DNA of 28,174 nt from a virus. Taxonomy: Duplodnaviria > Heunggongvirae > Uroviricota > Caudoviricetes. Shown here in pieces: positions 792 through 21,060 of this stretch; the first letter of the stretch is position 1; each line of letters begins with the position of its first letter. Where the stretch lies: positions 1-28,174 of the IMG/VR virus record IMGVR_UViG_2778261156_000003. One strand, given 5' to 3'. Under the pieces are notes generated by a model. That model had not been told where the DNA came from, searched no databases, and saw nothing but the letters and a program-made list of their open reading frames with translations. The position numbers and the translations under genes were made by a program.

Positions 792-827
792 AAAAACCCC
801 GGACTGTTCCAGCAGCCGGGGTTTTTG
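792..827. terminator. Bidirectional rho-independent terminator-like hairpin downstream of the endolysin gene
   Basis: CCCCGG (797-802) pairs with CCGGGG (816-821) around a 13-nt loop, flanked by AAAAA (792-796) and TTTTT (822-826), so either strand sees a stem followed by a U-tract. Confidence 0.5.
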
Positions 828-919
828 CTATCTGATGCTGTACCCCTTACTTTCGCTCATCGTAACCCCAGAAAAGAGCCTGCGTGAGTTGAGGGTGTTC
901 AGCACTTCAGCGTCAGTTT

Positions 920-1465
920 TTAAACTGCTACGCGCTCTTTCATCCAGCCGTAGACAAACGACTCGTTGGCCTCGCGTTTTTCTGCCAGCTCCAGATAGCG
1001 GTCGCCCTGCGTGCAATTCAGCGCCTTCAGCATCACCAGTTCGCCGTCTTTGCCGCGTTTTTGCAGATAAGTCCGTAGTGCATTAATCGTGCGGGGGCCG
1101 ATACGCCCGTCTGCGTCCATATCCGGGAACAATTTGCCTTGCAGGTTGAAAACGTTCAGCCAGCGTTGGAGCATTTTCGATGCTACGGACGGCCCCATAT
1201 TCACACCGGTATCACACAACTCTGCAGCAATATCAGAGGATAATGCGGCCACCTGATCAAAGCGTGGTCCGAACCAGTAATCCGCCTCAAGGATTTCCAG
1301 TGCCTGTTCGCGTGTCAGGTCACGCATATCGCCCTGATATCCGTGAGCGCGGGCGACTTTTTCCGTAATACCCCATTTTGTCGGTCCGCCTTTATCATCC
1401 GGGTGATTGACGTAACCGCCCTCTTTTCCCAGTACTTCGTCAAAAATTTCATCTTTCGACTTCAT
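920..1465 (-). CDS. Phage endolysin, GH108 lysozyme-like N-domain with C-terminal peptidoglycan-binding domain
   Basis: Translation MKSKDEIFDEVLGKEGGYVNHPDDKGGPTKWGIT... is typical of GH108 phage lysozymes. ATG at 1465-1463 is coupled to the upstream stop (TGATATG). It is the last gene of a holin-membrane protein-endolysin cassette. Confidence 0.85.
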   Translation of the reverse strand: MKSKDEIFDEVLGKEGGYVNHPDDKGGPTKWGITEKVARAHGYQGDMRDLTREQALEILEADYWFGPRFDQVAALSSDIAAELCDTGVNMGPSVASKMLQRWLNVFNLQGKLFPDMDADGRIGPRTINALRTYLQKRGKDGELVMLKALNCTQGDRYLELAEKREANESFVYGWMKERVAV

Positions 1466-1466
1466 A

Positions 1467-1745
1467 TCAGCGTCTTCGTAATACAAAGATTTTTGAAACG
1501 TTCCCGCGTGCGCGAATCACCAACACGCAGAACAGCAGATTAAGCCCCACCGCCAGCCAGTTCGCCGCTAACGGGCGACCGCACAGATAACTGAGTGGTG
1601 CAAAGGCATAAAGCAGCATCAGCAGCCAGGCCAGCCATGACATCAGCGGTTTATGTCTGGAATCACGGCGACGATAAAAAAAGAGCGTCAGCACGATAAC
1701 CGTGCATAACGCCACATTCAGCAATCCGGGAAGGTTACTTAACAT
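1467..1745 (-). CDS. Small hydrophobic membrane protein in lysis cassette (putative second holin or antiholin)
   Basis: 92-aa product MLSNLPGLLNVALCTVIVLTLFFYRRR...LMSWLAWLLMLLYAFAPLSYL... with 2-3 predicted TM segments. Strong RBS GGAGGAGG precedes ATG 1745-1743. Overlaps the holin stop. Confidence 0.55.
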   Translation of the reverse strand: MLSNLPGLLNVALCTVIVLTLFFYRRRDSRHKPLMSWLAWLLMLLYAFAPLSYLCGRPLAANWLAVGLNLLFCVLVIRARGNVSKIFVLRRR

Positions 1746-2127
1746 TGCCGCCTCCTCCACCCCGCAGGCGGGAGAACAGACCGGATACCAGTGATGCAAT
1801 ATCCTGCTGGTGGATAAACGAGAGAATCTTCACCGACACCACTGACACCAGTACTGCACACAATGCGTCGACAGGTGCACCGTCAAACTCTGTATGCTTT
1901 ACCAGCCAGGATGCCAGAACTTCTGCCCCCAGCACACCAACAATGAACGACACCAGAAAATGTGCCGCCACACGCCAGGCTGAAAGCGCCTGCGGCATCG
2001 TTGCCACAAATAACGCCCCGGCAAACGCACCAAACACAATCCCGAAATCCGTTCCGGTAAACAGCCCGTACACCGTCGCCCCGCCGAGCGCCGCAGCCGT
2101 GCCGGAACCGGATAAGGGTTCAGACAT
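1735..2127 (-). CDS. Phage holin-like membrane protein
   Basis: 130-aa product MSEPLSGSGTAAALGGATVYGLFTGTDFGIVFGAFAGALFVATM... with several hydrophobic helices. RBS GGAGA precedes ATG 2127-2125. It is the first gene of the lysis cassette. Confidence 0.65.
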   Translation of the reverse strand: MSEPLSGSGTAAALGGATVYGLFTGTDFGIVFGAFAGALFVATMPQALSAWRVAAHFLVSFIVGVLGAEVLASWLVKHTEFDGAPVDALCAVLVSVVSVKILSFIHQQDIASLVSGLFSRLRGGGGGNVK

Positions 2128-2488
2128 ACTTTTTCTCCTGTAAATAAAAAAGGGCCACCAGCGGCCCGTAAAAAACACCCCGTGAAAGGCACCCGCAGAT
2201 ACCTTTTATGTGGTGTTATCTGATGTGATATGCGCCTGACGTGGCTCGGAGAAAATGAAATAAAGCTTATCTGAAATTAAGGTTAATCCGGGGGTTTAAA
2301 CCATTTTTAAAGCTTAGTAATATCAAATCGTCTCTTGGAGGAGACTGATGCTTATTCTTCTTCACGGACTTTGTCCCGCGGCGTTAATCCGACAGCCGCG
2401 CTTTTTTTGCGCTCAGTTCATTATTGGCTTTCATGGCCTTGCCACACGGGTAATATCAATGCCCGTGTATTCTTTTCTGAGTTCAGAA

Positions 2489-2514
2489 TAAAAAAAACCG
2501 CCCGGAACGGCGGT
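2489..2514 (-). terminator. Rho-independent terminator (minus strand) between the phage tRNA genes and the lysis cassette
   Basis: Stem ACCGCC (2497-2502) / GGCGGT (2509-2514) with a 6-nt loop. On the minus strand it is followed by eight U (plus-strand A-run 2490-2497). Confidence 0.5.
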
Positions 2515-2874
2515 TGAAAAATGCCAGAGATGAATCATTTTTGTAGTAGAAAAACAGAGGTGTCGGGTGCCCCCCCGAAGTATCCATCTCTCCATGAATA
2601 CTGTGGTTTCCCGCTAAACAGTTACATAAACCACCCTCGCACTGAGGAACACCTCTGTAGTGTTATTTACAACACCGGGATAGTGCATCATCGGCCCCTG
2701 TCAGGAAACGCTCAATTTCCACCGACAATGCACCATTCCGGTGGTGTAAAAAACAGCACTGTGGCTATAACCGACCTCAAATCACAGCCAGAAAACAGAA
2801 TGCCTTTTAAAAACAACCTGCTCCCACGCAATAAAAAATACGCCAGTGCAACGATACAATAAGGCTTGTTTCTC

Positions 2875-2949
<75 letters not shown>

Positions 2950-2952
2950 ATA

Positions 2953-3028
<76 letters not shown>

Positions 3029-3196
3029 ACAGGTTCCTCAAGAGAAATAAAAATGACCGCGCTTACATCCCCTTCGGAACCGGGTACCGATATTAATAAT
3101 GCCAGCTCTCTTTTCAATGGAAAATCATATCAAGATTTGTAAATATACGTATATATTTTTATTTTTTATGAAATAAAGAAATTATTAAATGCATAT

Positions 3197-4243
3197 TTAA
3201 CGATTATTTTTTATTTCAGTTACAGTCTGATTAAATCTCTCTTCTTCCAGTTCCACGCCAATTGCACGACGTCCCAGTGAAAGTGCTGCTTTTATTGTTG
3301 AGCCAGACCCCATAAAAAAATCAGCGACCAAATCACCGGGGCGACTGCTGGCAGTAATTATCTGACGCAACATATCTGCCGGTTTTTCACAGGGATGTTT
3401 GCCTGGATAATACTGCACAGGCTTGTGCGTCCAGACATCCGTATACGGAACAGCAGCTGATACGGAAAAATAACGCCGCAGGGATTTATACTCCTCCTGC
3501 AGGCTGACATATTGCCGGTTCAGTTCACTGTATGTGCTGACCAGCTGGTGGTGTGGCTTTTCCAGCTCCCCTCGCTGATGTTTTTCTGCCGCAACACGCG
3601 CAAACAACGCCTGCAATTTGTTGTAATCACCCTCGTTCGGTAACTGCCACTGACTGGTACCAAACCAGTGCGAAGCCATGTTTTTCTTTCCGGTGGCTTC
3701 CGCTATCTGTTTTGACGTTATTCCCAGTGATTCACGCGCATCACGAAAGTAAGAAATCAGCGGAGCCATGACGTGCTGTTTTAGCTCGCGCCCCTTTGCC
3801 GCATAGCCGTCATTTTTGGGCTGATATGGTCCCTGATAATGTTCTGCAAACAGAATGCGTTCTGTTGCCGGGAAATACGCCCGCAGGCTTTCCTTGTTGC
3901 ATCCGTTCCAGCGTCCGGACGGCTTCGCCCAGATAATGTGATTCAGCACATTAAAGCGTTCACGCATCATGATTTCGGTGTCAGATGCCAGACGATGACC
4001 ACAGAACAGGTAGAGACTTCCGGCAGGTTTCAGTACCCGCCAGAATTGCGCCAGACACTGATCCAGCCATTTCAGGTAATCATCGCCGCCCTTCCACTGG
4101 TTATCCCAGCCCTCGGGCTTCACTTTAAAGTATGGCGGGTCTGTGACTATCAGATCGACAGAGTTTTCCGGTAAGGTCTGGATAAATTCCAGGCAATCAG
4201 CGTTGATTAACTCGCAACTGGATATTTTTACAGTATTAGCCAT
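3197..4243 (-). CDS. DNA methyltransferase (N6-adenine or N4-cytosine, beta-class; motif IV DPPY near N-terminus, motif I FxGSGST near C-terminus), orphan
   Basis: Translation contains LIVTDPPYF (catalytic motif IV) and DFFMGSGSTIKAA (AdoMet-binding motif I) in beta-class order. No adjacent restriction endonuclease gene. Confidence 0.85.
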   Translation of the reverse strand: MANTVKISSCELINADCLEFIQTLPENSVDLIVTDPPYFKVKPEGWDNQWKGGDDYLKWLDQCLAQFWRVLKPAGSLYLFCGHRLASDTEIMMRERFNVLNHIIWAKPSGRWNGCNKESLRAYFPATERILFAEHYQGPYQPKNDGYAAKGRELKQHVMAPLISYFRDARESLGITSKQIAEATGKKNMASHWFGTSQWQLPNEGDYNKLQALFARVAAEKHQRGELEKPHHQLVSTYSELNRQYVSLQEEYKSLRRYFSVSAAVPYTDVWTHKPVQYYPGKHPCEKPADMLRQIITASSRPGDLVADFFMGSGSTIKAALSLGRRAIGVELEEERFNQTVTEIKNNR

Positions 4244-4384
4244 AGATCAATAAGCACTTCTCTGATAGGCTCATACCGCTTTTGCGCAAAGCAGATGGGC
4301 CTGAGGTTTGCTTGTGACCCCAACGCATGAGCAGATGGCTGGCAGGTGCCGCTAACACCCACCAGCCGCCCATTACCACAAATT

Positions 4385-4406
4385 AAAAAACCTTCACTGC
4401 GGAAGG
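4385..4406 (-). terminator. Rho-independent terminator-like hairpin (minus strand) overlapping the 3' end of the small ORF
   Basis: CCTTC (4391-4395) / GAAGG (4402-4406) with loop ACTGCG. On the minus strand it is followed by a U-run (plus-strand A-run 4385-4390). Confidence 0.4.
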
Positions 4407-4591
4407 CGTCTGTAACAACCGAACTGATAATCTGCCAGACCCGCCATAACAAGCTGGGTCAGTATTAACTGGCAACGTTCGCGTGAAAGGTAAGTATTCT
4501 GCGCAATTTCCCCGACGGTCGCCGGTTCGGTGACGCTTAATTCATTAAACACCACTCTGGCAGTTTCGGTCATATCCTGCTGTTTTAGCAT
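4394..4591 (-). CDS. Hypothetical small protein (65 aa), possible winged-helix DNA-binding protein
   Basis: ATG at 4591-4589 preceded by AAGGGA RBS. Product MLKQQDMTETARVVFNELSVTEPATVGEIAQNTYLSRERCQLILTQLVMAG... The longer upstream extension in the ORF track has no RBS. Confidence 0.45.
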   Translation of the reverse strand: MLKQQDMTETARVVFNELSVTEPATVGEIAQNTYLSRERCQLILTQLVMAGLADYQFGCYRRLPQ

Positions 4592-4713
4592 GTCTTTTTC
4601 CCTTTTCTGGTTAACGTGACATACCAATAACTCTTGTCGAAACAGCCAGCAAGCTGAAAGACCAGTATTCGCAACCACCAGCGCGTTTAACGTACTTCGC
4701 CGATTTTCGGGCA

Positions 4714-4736
4714 CAAAAAAACCGCTCATCGGCGGG
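4714..4736 (-). terminator. Putative tR'-like terminator of a short late-promoter transcript (minus strand)
   Basis: Minus strand reads CCGC-CGATGA-GCGG followed by TTTTTTT. It lies about 40-60 nt downstream of a -10-like element (TATTAT) on the same strand, as expected for a Q-dependent PR'/tR' unit. Promoter assignment is inferred. Confidence 0.4.
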
Positions 4737-4846
4737 TTTAAGCTGTGTGGCGTAGTAACCACTCTTAACACGATATAATAATTTTTGCGTACGCGTTAGC
4801 GTTTTTGTATATTCAGCCTAATCCTATGTATTTATGGAAAAATAAG

Positions 4847-5971
4847 ATGAGCAAGCGTGAAATCAAAACTAAAAAAATAATCTATAAAGAAGTCATAATG
4901 TCAGGTGTGTCAAAGACGCTCCAGTCGATACTAATGGAGCTGCTCAAAAAACACACTAAAGCAGATTCTCGCAAGGAAATGGTCAACCCTGGCGAGGAAG
5001 ACTTATTCCGACTAATTAATAAACATGAAGAGTTCCAAGGAATGTTGTTTTGCCAGCTTGTTGCCTTCGAACCAGGCCATTCTCAACGCTATATACAACT
5101 TAAAAATGATGCTGAATCTTATGAAATAAGATCCGTAACATCAGATGAACTTTCTAAAATGACTGTTGAAGAAGCTGAAGAAGCACGCACAGAGAGGGAA
5201 CAGGTTGTGCGTGAGTTTATAGATTCAATTCTTTATTTCGGTATATTTGGTAACAGCATCGTAGTAATGCAATCCAGATCTCTTACAACAAGAGAACTTG
5301 AAACACATCTGAAATGGTTACTTGGCTCTTTAAGCAATTACTTAGGCGCAGAAAACATCTTAAAAGTTTCCGATAAACCCAAAGAAGAGATCATTGAGGA
5401 AGTTCTAAAACGACCTGTAAAATCAGTCTCTATAGGCGCACCTGTAACTGCCGTTAACGAATTGAGACAAGGAAGCAAAAGCCCAAGCTGGGTTCCCGCA
5501 GGAACTGCCTCTGAACTCCTTAAAGCTATGTTAGCAGAGAAATGGGAAAGTTTCTTACGTAGTAGCAAGCTTGAAGATTGTCTTGATGACGCTAATCTTG
5601 AAGTAACACTGAAAATCACATACAAGAGGAAAACTTCTGATTCAGGAGATGAGGATTTATCTCGCAATGAACAAAGAAGGTTAACAAGTCTTATTAAAGA
5701 AAAAAGCCGGGCTACATTATTCATGCTTACGCTACAAATTTCGATAATAATTTTTGTGGCATTGATTAGCCTTGGCAATGAGTCCTCTTTTGTTCAACAG
5801 CACATTCATACTATAAGTGAATTCGTTGTTTGTGCTTTGGTTTTTTCACTATACTCATTAATTCCTGTTTTACTAGGGGTAAAGGAAGTCATTGATTTTG
5901 AAGGATTAATAAAAACACGAAAAACATTAAACAAGCGTAAAAAATCTGCATTATCCAAGCTTGGGAAGTAA
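4847..5971 (+). CDS. AT-rich moron: 374-aa protein with acidic soluble N-terminal domain and C-terminal two-helix membrane hairpin; function unknown (candidate abortive-infection or superinfection-exclusion effector)
   Basis: ATG at 4847 (MSKREIKTKK...) with a -10-like GATATAAT at 4772-4779 upstream. Codon usage is visibly AT-rich compared with flanking phage genes. Two hydrophobic helices (ATLFMLTLQISIIIFVALISLG and ISEFVVCALVFSLYSLIPVLLGV) are followed by a basic tail KTRKTLNKRKKSALSKLGK. It is on the strand opposite all neighbouring phage genes. Confidence 0.75.
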   Translation: MSKREIKTKKIIYKEVIMSGVSKTLQSILMELLKKHTKADSRKEMVNPGEEDLFRLINKHEEFQGMLFCQLVAFEPGHSQRYIQLKNDAESYEIRSVTSDELSKMTVEEAEEARTEREQVVREFIDSILYFGIFGNSIVVMQSRSLTTRELETHLKWLLGSLSNYLGAENILKVSDKPKEEIIEEVLKRPVKSVSIGAPVTAVNELRQGSKSPSWVPAGTASELLKAMLAEKWESFLRSSKLEDCLDDANLEVTLKITYKRKTSDSGDEDLSRNEQRRLTSLIKEKSRATLFMLTLQISIIIFVALISLGNESSFVQQHIHTISEFVVCALVFSLYSLIPVLLGVKEVIDFEGLIKTRKTLNKRKKSALSKLGK

Positions 5972-5992
5972 TCCAAGCTTGGGTTCGCACTC

Positions 5993-6325
5993 TTAAATCA
6001 TTCTCAAAACACCATCAATAAAACCTAAAGCAGTTTGCAATTCCTTTCTGATCGTACCGTCCGAGCATTTTCGCTTCTTTGCAATTGTACGGAGTGAAAT
6101 CCCGATAACAAAATGTGCGATTATCAGTTCATATTCTTCAGGCCTATATTTACGTAACCGAGCCACACAGCCGTCTATCATAATGCCTTCATCATCATCG
6201 CATTGGAGTCGTGACTTTTTACCATGTGGCAAAAGCCCCTTGAAGCCCGCTGCTATCGGTTGCCAATCGACACCACTATTTTCTGCTGCAGCCCATGCCC
6301 CCCAGCGGTCTAAAACCTCATACAT
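5993..6325 (-). CDS. Late-gene antitermination protein Q (QuuD-like small Q family)
   Basis: Product MYEVLDRWGAWAAAENSGVDWQPIAAGFKGLLP...CDDDEGIMIDGCVARL... resembles small lambdoid Q proteins. ATG 6325-6323 is coupled to the rusA stop (TGATATG). Confidence 0.8.
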   Translation of the reverse strand: MYEVLDRWGAWAAAENSGVDWQPIAAGFKGLLPHGKKSRLQCDDDEGIMIDGCVARLRKYRPEEYELIIAHFVIGISLRTIAKKRKCSDGTIRKELQTALGFIDGVLRMI

Positions 6326-6326
6326 A

Positions 6327-6698
6327 TCACGCCCCATTACTATCACCTCTAATTTCGCAAATCTTCACGCCCAGCCGACCACCAGGAACGAGCTTACCGC
6401 GCACAATATTGATTTCATCAAACTGCTCGTCGTCTATGAGAAGCCCCGCATGCGTCAGTGCATCCAGCGGTGCTTTCAGGATATTGTCCAGGTCCCGACG
6501 GCGCTTATCCGGCGGCTCTGCAGTAATTTTTATTGCCAGCCTTCCGGACAGGTTTAATTTCAGCCGCTGCTGGCGGACAATAAGTGCCACATCCCGGCGA
6601 TAACGCTCACCGGCTTTTGATACAAAATATGTGCTGCCACGACGACGCCAGTAGGTGTTCACCGTCGGCGGGTAAGGCAAAACAAACTCTATACGCAT
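6327..6698 (-). CDS. rusA: Holliday-junction resolvase RusA
   Basis: Product MRIEFVLPYPPTVNTYWRRRG...DKRRRDLDNILKAPLDALTHAGLLIDDEQ... carries RusA hallmark motifs. RBS AAGAGG precedes ATG 6698. Confidence 0.9.
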   Translation of the reverse strand: MRIEFVLPYPPTVNTYWRRRGSTYFVSKAGERYRRDVALIVRQQRLKLNLSGRLAIKITAEPPDKRRRDLDNILKAPLDALTHAGLLIDDEQFDEINIVRGKLVPGGRLGVKICEIRGDSNGA

Positions 6699-6710: not shown

Positions 6711-7688
6711 TTACCCGAGCACGCCGGTTGCAAAGGCGCGATCAAGAAAACGAAAAATTAAATCAATCTGGGAACCATGCTTTTCTTCAAATGCCAGCGG
6801 ATCAGCATGAAGTTCGTTGTGATGCTCCCGGCACAACGGTAGCGTGAAAATATCGTGAGATTTTGTCCCCATTCCGCCCTGACCATGACCAATCAGGTGA
6901 TGGGGATCGTCGGCTGGCTTACCACAACACGCACACGGCTGTGTCTTCACCCAGCGTGTGTATTTCTCGTTAACCCAGCGGCGACGTTTAGGTCGTTTCA
7001 TGAAAGATTCCGGAGACTCCGGATCAACGGCAATGCTGACCACCGTCTTTTCCTGTGGCGGTTTTTGTTGCTGGTGGGCGTGAAGTGGTAGCACAATATT
7101 TTTTGTGCGCTGCTTCAGTATGCTGGTGGCAGTCTGCTCTCCCGGCATGATGTCGCTTTCGCGGTACACAGAGCGAATTTTTTCCGCACGCAACCCCAGA
7201 GAACGACGTAATACTGCCTCCGGAAGCGCGTCCGCTACCTGATTGCAGACCGACCACCAGGATAATTCAGCCAGCGATAATTCCCGTTCCTGCGTGCCAT
7301 TCATTGCATGGCGTATGACGTCAATCATCCATGCTGACAGGTTTTGATGAGCAAGTTGCCCGAGTGATTCGGATGTCTGGTCACGCAACTGGTTGTCGCA
7401 GTGCCAGCACAACACCATCGCGCCGGTACCGTAACGATGTATGACGATTTCACTGTGATGATAGTCACCATGAGGCCACTGGCAGGATTTGACATGACGC
7501 AACAGCCAGTCAGACAGTGCCCCAGCGCCGCCAGCAGCACGAATCACCCGCTCATCGCTGAAAAATGGCAGTAATGATTTATCCTCCGCCAGCGGCTGGC
7601 GAACGGCAGGGACGACTCCGGACGGCAGACCGCGCATGCTTTTCGGTTCAGGCTCCACCAGCACTCGAGGGTTATGAAATACTTGCAT
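6711..7688 (-). CDS. DUF968/YdfU-like lambdoid protein with C-terminal HNH-like zinc-binding motif
   Basis: C-terminus has CACCGKPADDPHHLIGHGQGGMGTKSHDIFTLPLCREHHNELH (HNH-like). Start chosen at internal ATG 7688 (MQVFHNPRVLVEPEP...) to avoid a 71-nt overlap with the upstream gene; the true start could be 7832. Confidence 0.7.
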   Translation of the reverse strand: MQVFHNPRVLVEPEPKSMRGLPSGVVPAVRQPLAEDKSLLPFFSDERVIRAAGGAGALSDWLLRHVKSCQWPHGDYHHSEIVIHRYGTGAMVLCWHCDNQLRDQTSESLGQLAHQNLSAWMIDVIRHAMNGTQERELSLAELSWWSVCNQVADALPEAVLRRSLGLRAEKIRSVYRESDIMPGEQTATSILKQRTKNIVLPLHAHQQQKPPQEKTVVSIAVDPESPESFMKRPKRRRWVNEKYTRWVKTQPCACCGKPADDPHHLIGHGQGGMGTKSHDIFTLPLCREHHNELHADPLAFEEKHGSQIDLIFRFLDRAFATGVLG

Positions 7689-7761
7689 GGATTCACGGCC
7701 CGGCCTAAGGACCACCAGCCCGAGTTCCGGTACCAGAACAGGTCGAAGTAATATCCGCACG

Positions 7762-8040
7762 TTACCTCCAGATCCGTTGCTGGTATGTGCGGGATGGGCG
7801 CGGTGGGCGTTCGGAATAAGGGAGCCTGACATAGATTATCCAGTGACGATAATCGAGGCTGAGGGCTTTCTTAATCTCGTATCCGCGTCTGCGATAGTTA
7901 TGAATTAGCCATTCGGCCTGTTCTTCAGTACATGGGTCATGCTGGAACCAGTCAGATTTGAAAGTGCGGGAACGCCGCCCGTGCCTGCTGGCAAAGACGG
8001 CAGAATCATCAGAATTGTGTAATTTGGTATCGTGCGCCAT
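7762..8040 (-). CDS. Hypothetical lambdoid nin-region protein (92 aa)
   Basis: ATG at 8040-8038 directly downstream of a minus-strand terminator. Product MAHDTKLHNSDDSAVFASRHGRRSRTFKSDWFQHDPCTEEQAEWLIHNYRRRGYEIKK... has no recognised family. Confidence 0.5.
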   Translation of the reverse strand: MAHDTKLHNSDDSAVFASRHGRRSRTFKSDWFQHDPCTEEQAEWLIHNYRRRGYEIKKALSLDYRHWIIYVRLPYSERPPRPSRTYQQRIWR

Positions 8041-8336: not shown

Positions 8337-8729
8337 CTACTGCCCTGTTTTAACGAAGTTTTTAAAGGAAACAACTGCCTGATAGGGGTTTGGTTGACAG
8401 CCAAACATATTATCGCAAAAAGGCTTGATGAAAATTCTTGAGGATCCATCTTCATTTGGCATTTTACTCACTTGATAAGCGAGGAATGGACTATTTGGAG
8501 AGGGATTATAAGTGGAAATTAGCGTGTCTGTCGCCGTTTGAATTTTCCATGAGGAATTATTAGCCAACCAGAATTGCGCTCGTTTCCAATAAAAGTCACA
8601 TTGCTTTTCATCATTACATGTTAGTGGCTTCATTGCTTCTGCTTTCAACGCTGGATCGATCTTTGCTGCACACCCTCCCAACATTACTGTTGCAATCATT
8701 ACACCTGCGACTAAAACAAGTTTCTTCAT
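8337..8729 (-). CDS. AT-rich moron: secreted lipoprotein (130 aa; lipobox LGGC; four Cys in mature part), function unknown
   Basis: Product MKKLVLVAGVMIATVMLGGCAAK... is a classic lipoprotein signal peptide. Strong RBS AGGGAG precedes ATG 8729. Low GC. Flanked by terminator-like repeats. Confidence 0.75.
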   Translation of the reverse strand: MKKLVLVAGVMIATVMLGGCAAKIDPALKAEAMKPLTCNDEKQCDFYWKRAQFWLANNSSWKIQTATDTLISTYNPSPNSPFLAYQVSKMPNEDGSSRIFIKPFCDNMFGCQPNPYQAVVSFKNFVKTGQ

Positions 8730-8872
8730 CTCCCTGCCCCATCAATAAAAGTTCGGTTCTCTAATAACTAGAGTTAATCAACGGAAAAAACGCCGAAGCG
8801 GGTTAAGTGCGGGTGCGTTGAGGATGCCTGACACATCAGAGGTGGCGAGGGATTTCTCCCCCGCCAGGTCTC

Positions 8873-9028
8873 TTACTCCTCAGGTTCGTAAGCTGTGAAG
8901 ACAGCGACCTCCGTCTGGCCGGTTCGGATTCGTACCTCGCAGAGGTCTTTCCTCGTTACCAGTGCCGTCACAATGACGGTTAAACAGATGACGATCAGGG
9001 CGATTAACATCGCCTTTTGCTGCTTCAT
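8873..9028 (-). CDS. hokD: Hok/Gef-family type I toxin (HokD/RelF-like)
   Basis: Product MKQQKAMLIALIVICLTVIVTALVTRKDLCEVRIRTGQTEVAVFTAYEPEE matches HokD/RelF as recalled. An in-frame upstream ATG at 9085 could give a mok-like extension. Confidence 0.85.
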   Translation of the reverse strand: MKQQKAMLIALIVICLTVIVTALVTRKDLCEVRIRTGQTEVAVFTAYEPEE

Positions 9029-9264
9029 AGCCTGCTTCTCCTTGCCTTTCGGCACGTAAGAGGCTAACCTAGATTTGCCGTTCATAGATTGAGCCTCAGA
9101 TTAATGTTAAGCGTCTTGCAGGACGCGTAATGTTAACTGGGGCTTTTCTCTATCTGCCTTTGGTGTTCATGCCTGAGACAGATAGCCTCAAGCACCCGCA
9201 GCCATTCTACTTAACTCCCGTTACCTCGCCAATATAAAATCAATCAGAAAGGTGATCCATAAAA

Positions 9265-9951
9265 TCACTCCTTCTCTTCTTTTCCGTAGTGGAGTTGGCC
9301 AATTTTGATAAGAGGGCGTCCCTGAGATTTGCGGTGTAGATTGGTATCGCGCAGAGAATACACACAGCCACAATATTCCTGCTGATAGAATTTTTCGCGC
9401 TTGCTGATTTCAATCATACGGGACGAGCCGCCCTGCTTGCGCCAGTTATAATCCCAGTACACCATACCCGGATAATGCGCAACAGCTCGCCGCCCACACT
9501 CGTTAACCTGCTGCATATTTTTCCAGCGTGAAATGCCCAGTGAACTGCTGATCACACTGAAACCATTTTCAGCAGCGTACAACGCTGTCCGCTCAAAACG
9601 CATGTCAAAACACATGGTACAACGGATCCCCCTCTCAGGCTCCCATTCCATTCCTTTGGCACGTTCAAACCAGTTGTCGGTGTCGTAATCAGCATCGATA
9701 AACGGCACGCCGTGTTGTTCAGCAAAGCGAATATTTTCATCCTTACGAATTAAATACTCTTTCTGAGGATGAATGTTCGGGTTGTAGAAAAAGATGGTGT
9801 AGTCGATTCCCGAGGCCTGAAGCGCCTCCATCACTTCACCGGAACATGGAGCACAGCAAGAGTGCAGTAGTAGTTTGTTTGCCCCGTTTGGGAGCTCCAA
9901 TTTAGGCCGTTTGAAATCAGCAATAGTCATAAATATTTTTATTGGGGTCAT
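9265..9951 (-). CDS. DUF208 protein, epoxyqueuosine reductase QueH-like
   Basis: N-terminal [14 protein letters not shown] motif plus downstream conserved Cys ([17 protein letters not shown]) are characteristic of the QueH/DUF208 family as recalled. Confidence 0.65.
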
Positions 9952-10104
9952 GAAAATAGCACAGAGTGTAGCATCAGAGCAGGTCTATCGGGAATATATG
10001 TCTAAATCTGGTAATATCTGGTTTTGACGCAAAGCGGACAACCACGCTGGCTCTACCCTGCGCCATGAAAATGTCAATTCACATCTGAACTAATGCTCTT
10101 TAAT

Positions 10105-10530
10105 CTAGTAACGTCTAAAATACCTAACATTTCCTTGATAAAATGCCAGTACACGCTGCATAGCTTCGCTCTTCCGGCACTCGCGACAGATTATATTCAG
10201 GCGCCTGTCGTAGCGGCGTATTTCGCCGTCTGGTAACGACCAGATAAGGTCCGGATCAACCACTGCAGGTTTCTTCACCTTTGCCCTTGAGAGTTTTTTG
10301 CGAGCATTTTGCCAGTCCTTACGCGCCTGTTCAGACGGGAATAACCCGTAACCAGAGTTGTATACATCGCCACTGGCAACCAGCTCTCTGGCGAGAACAC
10401 TCATCAGATATCTTGTCGCACCTGTCCTGGCTTCCAGTTGCCGCAACGTCTCGCGACCGCTCAGACGTACAAGTTCAACAACCTGCCCTTTAATTTTTTC
10501 CCGCTCTTCTTGTGTAAATACTTTTGCCAT
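10105..10530 (-). CDS. Hypothetical lambdoid nin-region protein (141 aa), possible DNA-binding protein
   Basis: ATG at 10530 with GGAGG RBS. Product MAKVFTQEEREKIKGQVVELVRLSGRETLRQLEARTGATRYLMSVLAREL...CRECRK... Confidence 0.6.
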   Translation of the reverse strand: MAKVFTQEEREKIKGQVVELVRLSGRETLRQLEARTGATRYLMSVLARELVASGDVYNSGYGLFPSEQARKDWQNARKKLSRAKVKKPAVVDPDLIWSLPDGEIRRYDRRLNIICRECRKSEAMQRVLAFYQGNVRYFRRY

Positions 10531-10545
10531 AAGCGCCTCCGGCAA

Positions 10546-11316
10546 TCACTTTTCCGATACAACACGGCGGGAAGAATCAGTAATCTGTCGAACAATATCC
10601 CGGTGCTTGTTCAGCTCCCGCAGCGCGGCGCAGACTCGCTCCCACTTCTGAACATCACTTTTCGCCCTGCGCAGCGCCAGGTTTGCCCTGCGAAGGGACG
10701 GAAAAATCAGCTCATCTGCTTGCGTTTCGGTAAACGATGGCAACGGCTGCACAATGTCCGCCACAGTTTCTGTTTTAATTTCTTCCTGTGTTGCGGCTTC
10801 CCGGACTGGTAACGCAGCACCTGCTGGCTGAGGAAAGGCCTTACCATCACTTTCCGTTACCAGCGCGGCTTTCGGCTCTGCTGGTAAATTATCGCCCGGC
10901 ATGCAGTAACGAAATTTACCGTTCTGATTAACGCGTGCCAGCCGCCCCGTTGCGGTTACCACCGCCAGCGTGGAAGCAACCTTGCGAGTACTGACACCGA
11001 ACTTACCCGCCAGTTCCTCACACGTTTTAGCCCCATCCTGACCGATAAACTCAATCATCATGTCTGCGGTAACTTTTTGTTCGACCTCCCCGGTCAGCAT
11101 ATCCTGTGCTTCAGATTTTACTGGCCGCTCTTCGGTTACCCGGGATTCACCTTCGCCAGCCAGAAACCAGGTGTGACCAGTTTTATCAACGACGCCTTTT
11201 CTTTTGAGTTCCCACAGCTCGTTGACAGCCTCTTCACGACTGATTCCAAGGCGAGCTGCCACCACATGTGAAGAGGCTTTTTTCAGTGCTTTCAGTGCGT
11301 CAGATACGGTTTCCAT
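10546..11316 (-). CDS. Phage protein with two winged-helix-like segments (DUF1627-like), function unknown
   Basis: Product METVSDALKALKKASSHVVAARLGISREEAVNELWELKRKGVV... with a second HTH-like segment EELAGKFGVSTRKVASTLAVVTATGRLARV. Family name is from memory and uncertain. Confidence 0.6.
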   Translation of the reverse strand: METVSDALKALKKASSHVVAARLGISREEAVNELWELKRKGVVDKTGHTWFLAGEGESRVTEERPVKSEAQDMLTGEVEQKVTADMMIEFIGQDGAKTCEELAGKFGVSTRKVASTLAVVTATGRLARVNQNGKFRYCMPGDNLPAEPKAALVTESDGKAFPQPAGAALPVREAATQEEIKTETVADIVQPLPSFTETQADELIFPSLRRANLALRRAKSDVQKWERVCAALRELNKHRDIVRQITDSSRRVVSEK

Positions 11317-19903: not shown

Positions 19904-19993
19904 TGGCGGAGAGAGGGGGATTTGAACCCCCGGTGGAGTTGCCCCCACTCCGGTTTTCGAGACCGGTCCGTTCAGCCGCTCCGGCATCTCTCC
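19904..19993 (-). tRNA. serU: tRNA-Ser (anticodon CGA); prophage integration target
   Basis: Reverse complement GGAGAGATGCCGGAGCGGCTGAACGGACCGGTCTCGAAAACCGGAGTGGGGGCAACTCCACCGGGGGTTCAAATCCCCCTCTCTCCGCCA. Long variable arm and anticodon loop CTCGAAA. Confidence 0.9.
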
Positions 19994-20984: not shown

Positions 20985-21060
20985 TCCTCTGTAGTTCAGT
21001 CGGTAGAACGGCGGACTGTTAATCCGTATGTCACTGGTTCGAGTCCAGTCAGAGGAGCCA
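20985..21060 (+). tRNA. asnT: tRNA-Asn (anticodon GUU)
   Basis: TCCTCTGTAGTTCAGTCGGTAGAACGGCGGACTGTTAATCCGTATGTCACTGGTTCGAGTCCAGTCAGAGGAGCCA is the canonical E. coli tRNA-Asn. Confidence 0.95.

Follow-up and report, generated by a model that had tools for sequence, protein, structure and literature searches.

A recent deletion fused, and probably inactivated, a RexAB-like two-gene module in a lambdoid prophage

The window that we analyzed is a stretch of 28,174 nucleotides (nt) from a Caudoviricetes virus (IMG/VR record IMGVR_UViG_2778261156_000003, positions 1 to 28,174). Beside the antiterminator gene Q of this lambdoid prophage lies a plus-strand open reading frame (ORF) of 374 amino acids (aa), which an initial annotation had described as a single gene. 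We found that two adjacent genes, here called A and B, make up the ORF as an in-frame chimera, and that they were joined by a deletion of 439 bp. We consider it fairly probable that the ORF is a recently inactivated copy of a widespread two-gene exclusion module of the RexAB type. A Rex-like mechanism is the most likely one for intact A and B, by analogy with RexAB of phage lambda, gp30/gp31 of phage Sbash, and RexABpp of Pseudomonas putida.

The close relatives of the ORF are in 13 of 5,426 complete Escherichia coli genomes and in the Shiga toxin (Stx) 2a-converting phages 1447 and WGPS2. With blastn, a 1,351-bp query from the window aligned to these relatives as two pieces, and spanned about 1,785–1,790 bp of them. 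In the annotation of the relatives, two genes take the place of the ORF: A (343 aa) and B (179 aa), in different frames and with an overlap of 8 bp. A base-level three-way comparison showed that the window is shorter than the intact relatives by exactly 439 bp, with the junction between positions 5649 and 5650. Because 439 leaves a remainder of 1 when divided by 3, the deletion joins the frame of A to the frame of B. The fusion product consists of A(1–267), a hybrid codon (GA from A plus T, which gives D268), and B(74–179). The PHROGs database also splits the protein in two: phrog_3482 matches residues 1–269 (E = 7.5e-100) and phrog_16807 matches residues 260–374 (E = 1.3e-54). Both are listed with “unknown function,” so they provide a name without a mechanism.

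The deletion is very recent. The prophage in the window and the prophage of E. coli 47-1826, which has both genes intact, are 99.95–100% identical over 10.7 kb, and the B-derived part of the fusion is 100% identical to the intact B of 47-1826 over 401 nt. Over the 10.7 kb, the sole differences are the 439-bp deletion and an insertion of IS3 in the DUF968 gene of 47-1826. (The DUF968 gene is whole in the window, at 6711–7832, and is split by the IS3-family element in 47-1826, at 8451–10836 of locus L001.) Because the flanks are so similar to those of an intact two-gene relative, we infer that there was little time since the deletion, and therefore the open frame of the fusion is uninformative about selection.

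Consistent with a recent event, the exact fused protein is known from just two sources: the record of the window itself (GCA_002467125.1, NJNC01000043.1) and a single Logan contig, from SRR9002277. As this contig is 100% identical to the window over 6,220 bp, it may be from the same strain. None of the 5,426 complete E. coli genomes contained the fusion. A search of 5.8 billion protein clusters did not find the fused protein either: there were 28 matches with E ≤ 0.001, and none of these covered more than 73% of the query. As to how the deletion arose, we considered a microhomology-mediated event and rejected it. At most one base is shared at the junction, and the AGGAT motif that occurs near both ends is offset by one base.

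The deletion removed conserved parts of both proteins. A lost 76 residues, which include 10 invariant and 6 nearly invariant positions of the alignment. The lost segment covers the conserved C-terminal third of the second domain and the terminal helix, and it corresponds to the best-predicted blocks in the C-terminal half of A (predicted local distance difference test, or pLDDT, of 81–94 at residues 291–340). What had been described as a sensor domain of about 290 aa is instead a truncated protein, without the last 76 residues of its 343-aa intact form. From B, 73 residues are gone, from the N-terminus through helices 1 and 2 into the beginning of the cytoplasmic loop, and with them went 29 of the 83 invariant positions of the close family, as well as both of the prolines that are still invariant in distant homologs. 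The window ORF retains two of the four helices of B, and does not have the four-helix feature of RexB. Because conserved parts of both A and B are gone, the fused protein is most likely inactive for exclusion, and we think it very probable that the window's copy is non-functional as an exclusion system.

Other copies of the module in E. coli have been broken independently. In E. coli OkiPb01677 (807–3176 of locus L037), gene A is split by the IS4-like element ISVsa5. In E. coli A34 (1645–3195 of locus L036), gene A is fragmented and B is shortened to 153 aa. With the deletion in the window, this makes three distinct lesions among the roughly 16 E. coli copies of the A-B module. Separately, we noticed a group of 82-aa proteins (P0042, P0253, and their relatives) that correspond to the C-terminal part of B and are common in Klebsiella and E. 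coli. This cluster is found on hundreds of contigs (68 + 170 and more), and most of its members are unnamed. These fragments may be further truncated remnants or a small ORF that was called separately.

The intact state of the module is a pair of genes. We examined 21 loci with A, comprising the E. coli relative, three distant homologs, and 17 species genomes. In all 21 loci, an ORF of 161–225 aa with four hydrophobic regions and a tail rich in lysine and arginine (K/R) lies directly 3' of A, on the same strand. The gap between A and this ORF ranges from about −80 to +31 nt, with some uncertainty about the start codons. The partner ORFs align with B. The 17 species genomes include Marinobacter, Pseudomonas, Chromohalobacter, and metagenome-assembled genomes (MAGs) of Ureibacillus and of an Actinomycete, so that the overall range is from the Enterobacterales to MAGs of a Firmicute and an Actinomycete. 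The initial annotation had proposed that one gene makes up the system; in its ancestral and widespread form, however, it is an operon of two genes, and the single ORF is a rare product of deletion.

All 10 of the distinct neighborhoods with gene calls are in prophages, but the position within the prophage varies. In E. coli, Serratia, and Franconibacter, the A-B module is on the opposite strand between Q and the lysis or late genes. In Providencia, it lies directly 3' of a cI-type repressor gene and on that gene's strand, with SieB nearby. In Proteus, it is in the corresponding early-left region; no repressor gene is visible there, as the contig stops immediately upstream. In Microbulbifer, the module adjoins a pair of helix-turn-helix repressors, and in Xenorhabdus, it is at the end of the prophage beside tail-fiber genes. 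The prophages of E. coli and Klebsiella that carry the module include Stx2a-converting phages, where A-B adjoins the toxin operon: in antisense orientation, it occupies the space between Q and the stx-bearing late operon. These varied positions suggest that A-B behaves as mobile cargo.

We modeled the structure of intact A with AlphaFold 2 (AF2) from an alignment of 28 sequences (pLDDT 73.7; predicted template modeling score, or pTM, 0.72). When the model was compared to the Protein Data Bank (PDB) with Foldseek, there were two matches below E = 0.001, and both were lambda RexA chains in 8twq (E = 2e-6, probability 1.00). Against 8twq, the global TM-score is low, as expected for a hinged protein of two domains. 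The next structural matches after RexA were IML3 (7.2), CHL4 (7.2), RdgC (7.0), and CENP-N (6.9), which are the structural relatives of RexA that were reported with its crystal structure (PMC11077077). According to this model, A has the fold of lambda RexA, that is, the two-domain RexA/RdgC fold with a globular domain that is split and a domain for dimerization, which makes RexAB the closest known system. The initial annotation could not assign the protein to any named family and had suggested a check with Foldseek and AlphaFold; on intact A, this check led to lambda RexA, and there was no meaningful Pfam match. It also gave AbiZ-like and SLATT-type proteins as examples of what the ORF might be. 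We found no match of the fusion or of intact B to SLATT (in Pfam) or to AbiZ (in PADLOC) at E ≤ 1.

For intact B, the prediction is a small protein of the inner membrane with four helices: the sequence contains four hydrophobic regions, and its AF2 model has four long helices (residues 16–37, 45–73, 78–114, and 125–177). The pattern of charges is compatible with both termini being in the cytoplasm: the N-terminus has a net charge of +3, the outer loops are short, and the tail has a net charge of +7. The loop between helices 2 and 3 has 32 residues, of which 8 are K/R.

By analogy with the known Rex systems, we propose that intact A, a cytosolic protein with the two-domain RexA fold, would sense an infecting phage and then activate B, in the inner membrane, with its four helices and its two cytoplasmic termini. 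Activated B would damage or depolarize the membrane, so that growth stops and the infection is aborted. In the lineage of the window, the 439-bp deletion later joined A(1–267) to B(74–179).

How does A-B compare to the Rex-type systems that have been described? Lambda RexA is a dimeric protein that binds DNA non-specifically (PMC11077077). In Rex-like pairs, a cytosolic protein of the RexA type activates a membrane partner with four helices, and growth stops; in lambda RexAB and in the pairs of Sbash, CarolAnn, and P. putida, exclusion depends on both proteins (PMC12894663). As the term is used in that work, a RexAB-type system has a RexA-like gene followed by a co-oriented gene for a membrane protein, which is what we see in all 21 loci, and which in the window has become one fused gene. 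Such systems are carried by temperate phages or prophages, typically beside the immunity repressor. All of the contexts of A-B that we examined are prophages, and the modules of Providencia and Microbulbifer are by a repressor.

Like A-B in Providencia, the rexAB genes of lambda lie downstream of the cI repressor gene. In contrast to lambda rexAB, which is in the immunity region, the A-B genes of E. coli, Serratia, and Franconibacter are on the opposite strand between Q and the late genes. Lambda RexA and RexB (PF15969 and PF15968) have no detectable sequence similarity to A or B, and they are smaller: RexA has 279 aa instead of 343 aa, and RexB has 144 aa instead of 179 aa. Unlike lambda RexB, B has a charged loop of about 30 aa between helices 2 and 3 and a basic tail of about 30 aa. 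The copy in the window differs further from lambda RexAB in being a fused and truncated remnant.

RexABpp (PP_5643/PP_5644), from prophage P1 of P. putida, is similar to A-B in size, with 37.5 kDa for RexApp-His and no fewer than 181 residues for RexBpp (PMC12894663). Defense requires both genes, and overexpression of the RexA-like protein leads to growth arrest that depends on its partner (PMC12894663). PP_5643 was linked to RexA by HHpred with a probability of 98%, whereas family A gives no such profile signal. We considered whether RexApp belongs to family A and rejected the idea, as the gene ends that are encoded in the published primers (MHRTATFV... and ...VYNKQSRLMV for RexApp, ...LYYLGYKLQE for RexBpp) are unlike those of A and B, and no primer matched any of our loci. 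Judging from these primer-encoded ends alone, RexABpp and A-B are probably separate families.

The Rex-like pairs of actinobacteriophages (Sbash gp30/gp31, CarolAnn gp44/gp43, and Butters gp30/gp31) have RexA-like proteins of 337–372 aa, which is near the length of A (PMC11077077, PMC12894663). These pairs have membrane-protein partners, are expressed from the prophage, and exclude other phages; we liken them to A-B from their descriptions. They differ in that their hosts are Actinobacteria and in that, for Butters, the roles are reversed and the cytosolic protein is the effector. Overall, A-B is not a member of the RexAB group by sequence. By its modeled fold, A qualifies, and B is RexB-like in its architecture only, as was RexBpp. 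We describe A-B as a module of the RexAB type whose sequence family is new; what is new is the family and not the copy in the window.

Several results weigh against a Rex-type function for A-B, or against the loss of function in the window. The RexA fold is also found in RdgC and in kinetochore proteins, which are not defense proteins. Sequence comparisons do not connect the families: at E ≤ 1, PF15969 matched neither the fusion, nor intact A, nor the distant homologs of A (the lambda RexA control scored 323 bits), and PF15968 did not match B (the lambda RexB control scored 305 bits). Similarly, hhalign gave a probability of 0.7% for family A (164 sequences) against the RexA family (28 sequences), and of 0.2% for family B (21 sequences) against the RexB-like proteins from 17 loci. 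The single-sequence comparisons with hhalign were also negative, for A as well as for B. A sequence search of the PDB with the profile of A gave chance-level matches only (E ≥ 0.07), and scans of the fusion, intact A, B, and the distant homologs with Pfam, NCBIfam, and PADLOC gave nothing meaningful. In particular, PADLOC-DB 2.0.0 has no family for the fusion, for B, or for two distant homologs of A, and the only match for A was at chance level (PtuA, E = 0.018). The model of B had no significant match among the viral predicted structures in BFVD (best E = 0.15). (The third-ranked match there was a 165-aa protein from Sbash, at a non-significant E of 0.56; Sbash is the phage with the Rex-like pair gp30/gp31.) In the databases, A and B are always named “hypothetical protein,” and we found no paper on the A-B family in the literature that we searched. 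Lastly, the fusion point is within the cytoplasmic loop of B, so the chimera could enter the membrane in the native orientation and could have residual or altered activity.

This last point bears on whether the 374-aa protein might be functional as it stands, with one gene providing abortive infection or exclusion through a soluble sensor that is joined to a membrane effector of two helices. The ORF is intact and its topology is plausible, with the A part and the junction in the cytoplasm, followed by the helical hairpin and the basic tail. Also, the same slot has defense genes in other prophages, and the fusion of a sensor to an effector is a known evolutionary route. However, apart from the window's record, the fused protein is found only in one contig with 100% identity to the window, and neither the complete E. 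coli genomes nor the 28 matches from the cluster search contain it. The flanks are identical to those of an intact two-gene relative, hence there was no time for selection. Furthermore, the conserved cores of both parents are gone, and an in-frame outcome has a one-in-three chance of arising. We therefore regard a functional single gene as very unlikely. A specific form of it, in which the fusion works as a single-chain Rex-like protein with a truncated RexA-fold domain tethered to the membrane beside a two-helix hairpin in its native orientation, strikes us as highly improbable. If it were true, the fusion could be a sensor and effector in one protein, of a new kind, or could modulate Rex-like channels in a dominant way, and it would be an example of two-gene abortive-infection systems collapsing into single genes. 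It is barely credible that the deletion is an artefact of assembly and that the real genome has an intact two-gene module. The two assemblies with the deletion are identical over 6.2 kb and may represent one isolate, but the same junction came from two assembly pipelines (the NCBI submitter's and Logan's), and with a homology of 0–1 nt at the junction there is no repeat at the endpoints for an assembler to collapse.

Other alternatives concern the function of the intact module. A might be a DNA-binding protein of the RexA/RdgC type that serves the life cycle of the prophage, for instance by biasing the choice between lysis and lysogeny in the manner of lambda RexA, or by modulating recombination in the manner of RdgC; B would then be a membrane anchor or a regulator. 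The presence of the fold in RdgC fits with this idea. Yet the strict pairing of A with a four-helix membrane protein is the pattern of Rex and not of RdgC, the module moves like cargo among the Q slot, the cI slot, and the end of the prophage, and its base composition is foreign. Also, it shares its slot with defense systems, and several broken copies indicate that it is dispensable. Thus, we think that a role in the prophage life cycle is unlikely. We view it as quite unlikely that A-B acts by superinfection exclusion at the membrane, blocking the entry of DNA without arresting the cell (as in Sie or Imm). B is a small inner-membrane protein and the module of Providencia is near a SieB gene, in a classical exclusion region; but the RexA fold of A suggests sensing within the cell, and proteins that block injection usually act alone, with no need for a cytosolic partner of 343 aa that has a DNA-binding fold.

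The location of the ORF is consistent with a defense cargo. A block of about 95 bp is nearly invariant across the window, E. coli 47-1826, E. coli AZ146, and Shigella phage SfII, and the cargo to its right is wholly different. There are 157 E. coli genomes that match only the part of our query that corresponds to this block. To the right of the block are three unrelated cargoes, each on the opposite strand from Q. In the slot of AZ146 (3646–5495 of locus L012), there is a DUF262 protein that matches the PADLOC families NsnA (E = 5.6e-46) and PD-T4-2_A (E = 4.3e-27), along with a HEPN nuclease and a Dcm methylase. The slot of SfII (3635–5249 of locus L013) contains the PADLOC candidate PDC-M53A/B (E = 2e-32 and 3e-54). 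Both of these slots are equivalent to 4813–5992 of the window. We had considered the SfII_50/49 pair from this slot as possible kin of A and B, but they are unrelated and correspond to PDC-M53. Because other prophages have recognized defense genes here and because the three cargoes are different, the Q-proximal slot appears to be a defense hotspot of this group of lambdoid prophages.

The initial annotation had asked if this slot holds variable cargo, which is what these three cargoes (A-B, DUF262/HEPN, and PDC-M53) illustrate. Its description of the ORF as an opposite-strand cargo of foreign composition, between Q and a putative late promoter, agrees with the GC content and with the alignment of the block. 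The broader idea of a defense cargo that combines a sensor with a membrane effector holds in outline for the ancestral two-gene module, but not for the window's copy, which is probably dead.

The conserved block probably is a Q-dependent late promoter/terminator unit. It holds a GC stem-loop (4722–4735) followed by a run of seven T on the minus strand (4715–4721); the loop varies between phages and the stem is kept. If the block is the late promoter, then late transcription would start downstream of the cargo and would not read through it. The initial annotation had assigned the ORF its own promoter. A TATAAT is indeed present (4774–4779), and this near-palindromic −10 element (GATATAAT / ATTATATC) could be used by either strand. 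However, it is within the block that is shared with prophages that carry unrelated cargo, so it is part of the backbone and not of the AT-rich insert. No −35 hexamer matches at 4 or more of the 6 positions, and our promoter scan did not list the TATAAT, so a promoter of the ORF's own is doubtful. Nor did the scan find a clear late promoter on the minus strand.

Table 1. Coordinates of the fused ORF and of the edges of its slot in the window.
Feature	Position	Strand	Basis
Conserved backbone block, left edge of the cargo slot, outside the insert	about 4719..4812	.	Alignment of four prophages; probable late promoter/terminator unit for Q
Fused ORF, 374 aa	4847..5971	+	A(1–267) + hybrid codon D268 + B(74–179) + stop; ORF list and translation
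A-derived part, RexA-fold protein (modeled) cut after residue 267 of 343	4847..5649	+	
Deletion junction, 439 bp gone relative to intact relatives, 0–1 nt of microhomology, frame restored	5649..5650	+	blastn pieces and three-way comparison
B-derived part, the final 106 of B's 179 residues, with half the cytoplasmic loop, transmembrane helices 3 and 4 (TM3, TM4), basic tail	5651..5971	+	phrog_16807; alignment of the B family
Two remaining hydrophobic helices, TM3 and TM4 of B, residues ~287–349 of the fusion	5705..5893	+	Kyte-Doolittle; AF2 model of intact B
Antiterminator Q gene, right edge of the cargo slot	5993..6337	-	PF06530 (Phage_antitermQ); Q family protein in the relatives' annotation

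Most of what the initial annotation had seen in the ORF itself is borne out. The ORF begins with ATG, and there is a longer form that begins with TTG at 4805. In agreement with the gene calls and the ORF list, it is a plus-strand ORF among minus-strand genes: every called neighbor is on the minus strand, including an N6/N4 methyltransferase (3197–4243), a 65-aa ORF (4394–4591), Q, RusA, and DUF968. It was described as AT-rich, and its GC content is 37.3% (31% at third codon positions), as compared to 49.1% and 52.0% in the left and right flanks, respectively, and 48% in the whole window. It is convergent with Q, with 21 bp between its stop, which ends at 5971, and the stop codon of Q, which begins at 5993. 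The C-terminal hairpin of two helices and the basic tail are also apparent, from hydrophobic segments at residues ~287–316 and 320–349 (Kyte-Doolittle windows) and from 10 K/R among the last 29 residues.

Some of the neighboring genes may be of interest in their own right. The 65-aa ORF on the minus strand (WP_000917767.1 in the relatives) is the first gene past the presumed late promoter. It accompanies the conserved block in prophages with the A-B or the DUF262 cargo (the window, 47-1826, and AZ146), and SfII has a holin gene there instead. It has weak winged-helix-like matches only (Pfam TrmB, E = 0.0025). The early region of the prophage contains genes for a Hok/Gef-type toxin (hokD in a relative; 8873–9085) and for the epoxyqueuosine reductase QueH (9265–9930). 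Between the methyltransferase and the lysis genes are tRNA-Gly(tcc) and tRNA-Thr(tgt) (2875–3028); at the equivalent position, Stx phages have ileZ-argN-argO and stx. Farther along are tRNA-Ser(cga) (19904–19993) and tRNA-Asn(gtt) (20985–21060), which may mark the boundary of the prophage.

The copy in the window is a caution, as an intact-looking ORF with the features of a “single-gene sensor plus effector” can be the scar of a recent deletion. The broader significance is in the intact family. To our knowledge, the question of how Rex senses infection is unsolved after 70 years. By early 2026, descriptions of Rex-like systems numbered only five (PMC12894663). At 50% identity, family A comprises 724 representatives with E ≤ 0.001 (231 of these with E ≤ 1e-30), and, by analogy with the known systems, we lean slightly towards placing the intact A-B family within Rex-type immunity, as a large branch. 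The family would combine the RexA fold with an unrelated four-helix partner, and it has hundreds of diverse members in the Proteobacteria and beyond. If the intact module is active, it would be a second Rex-type system, independent in sequence, in the classic host E. coli, and it would help to distinguish the essentials of the Rex mechanism from the traits that are specific to lambda. PMC11879866 raised the question of whether different Rex-like systems are the targets of the diverse rII modules in lytic phages, and an active A-B module would help to probe this as well.

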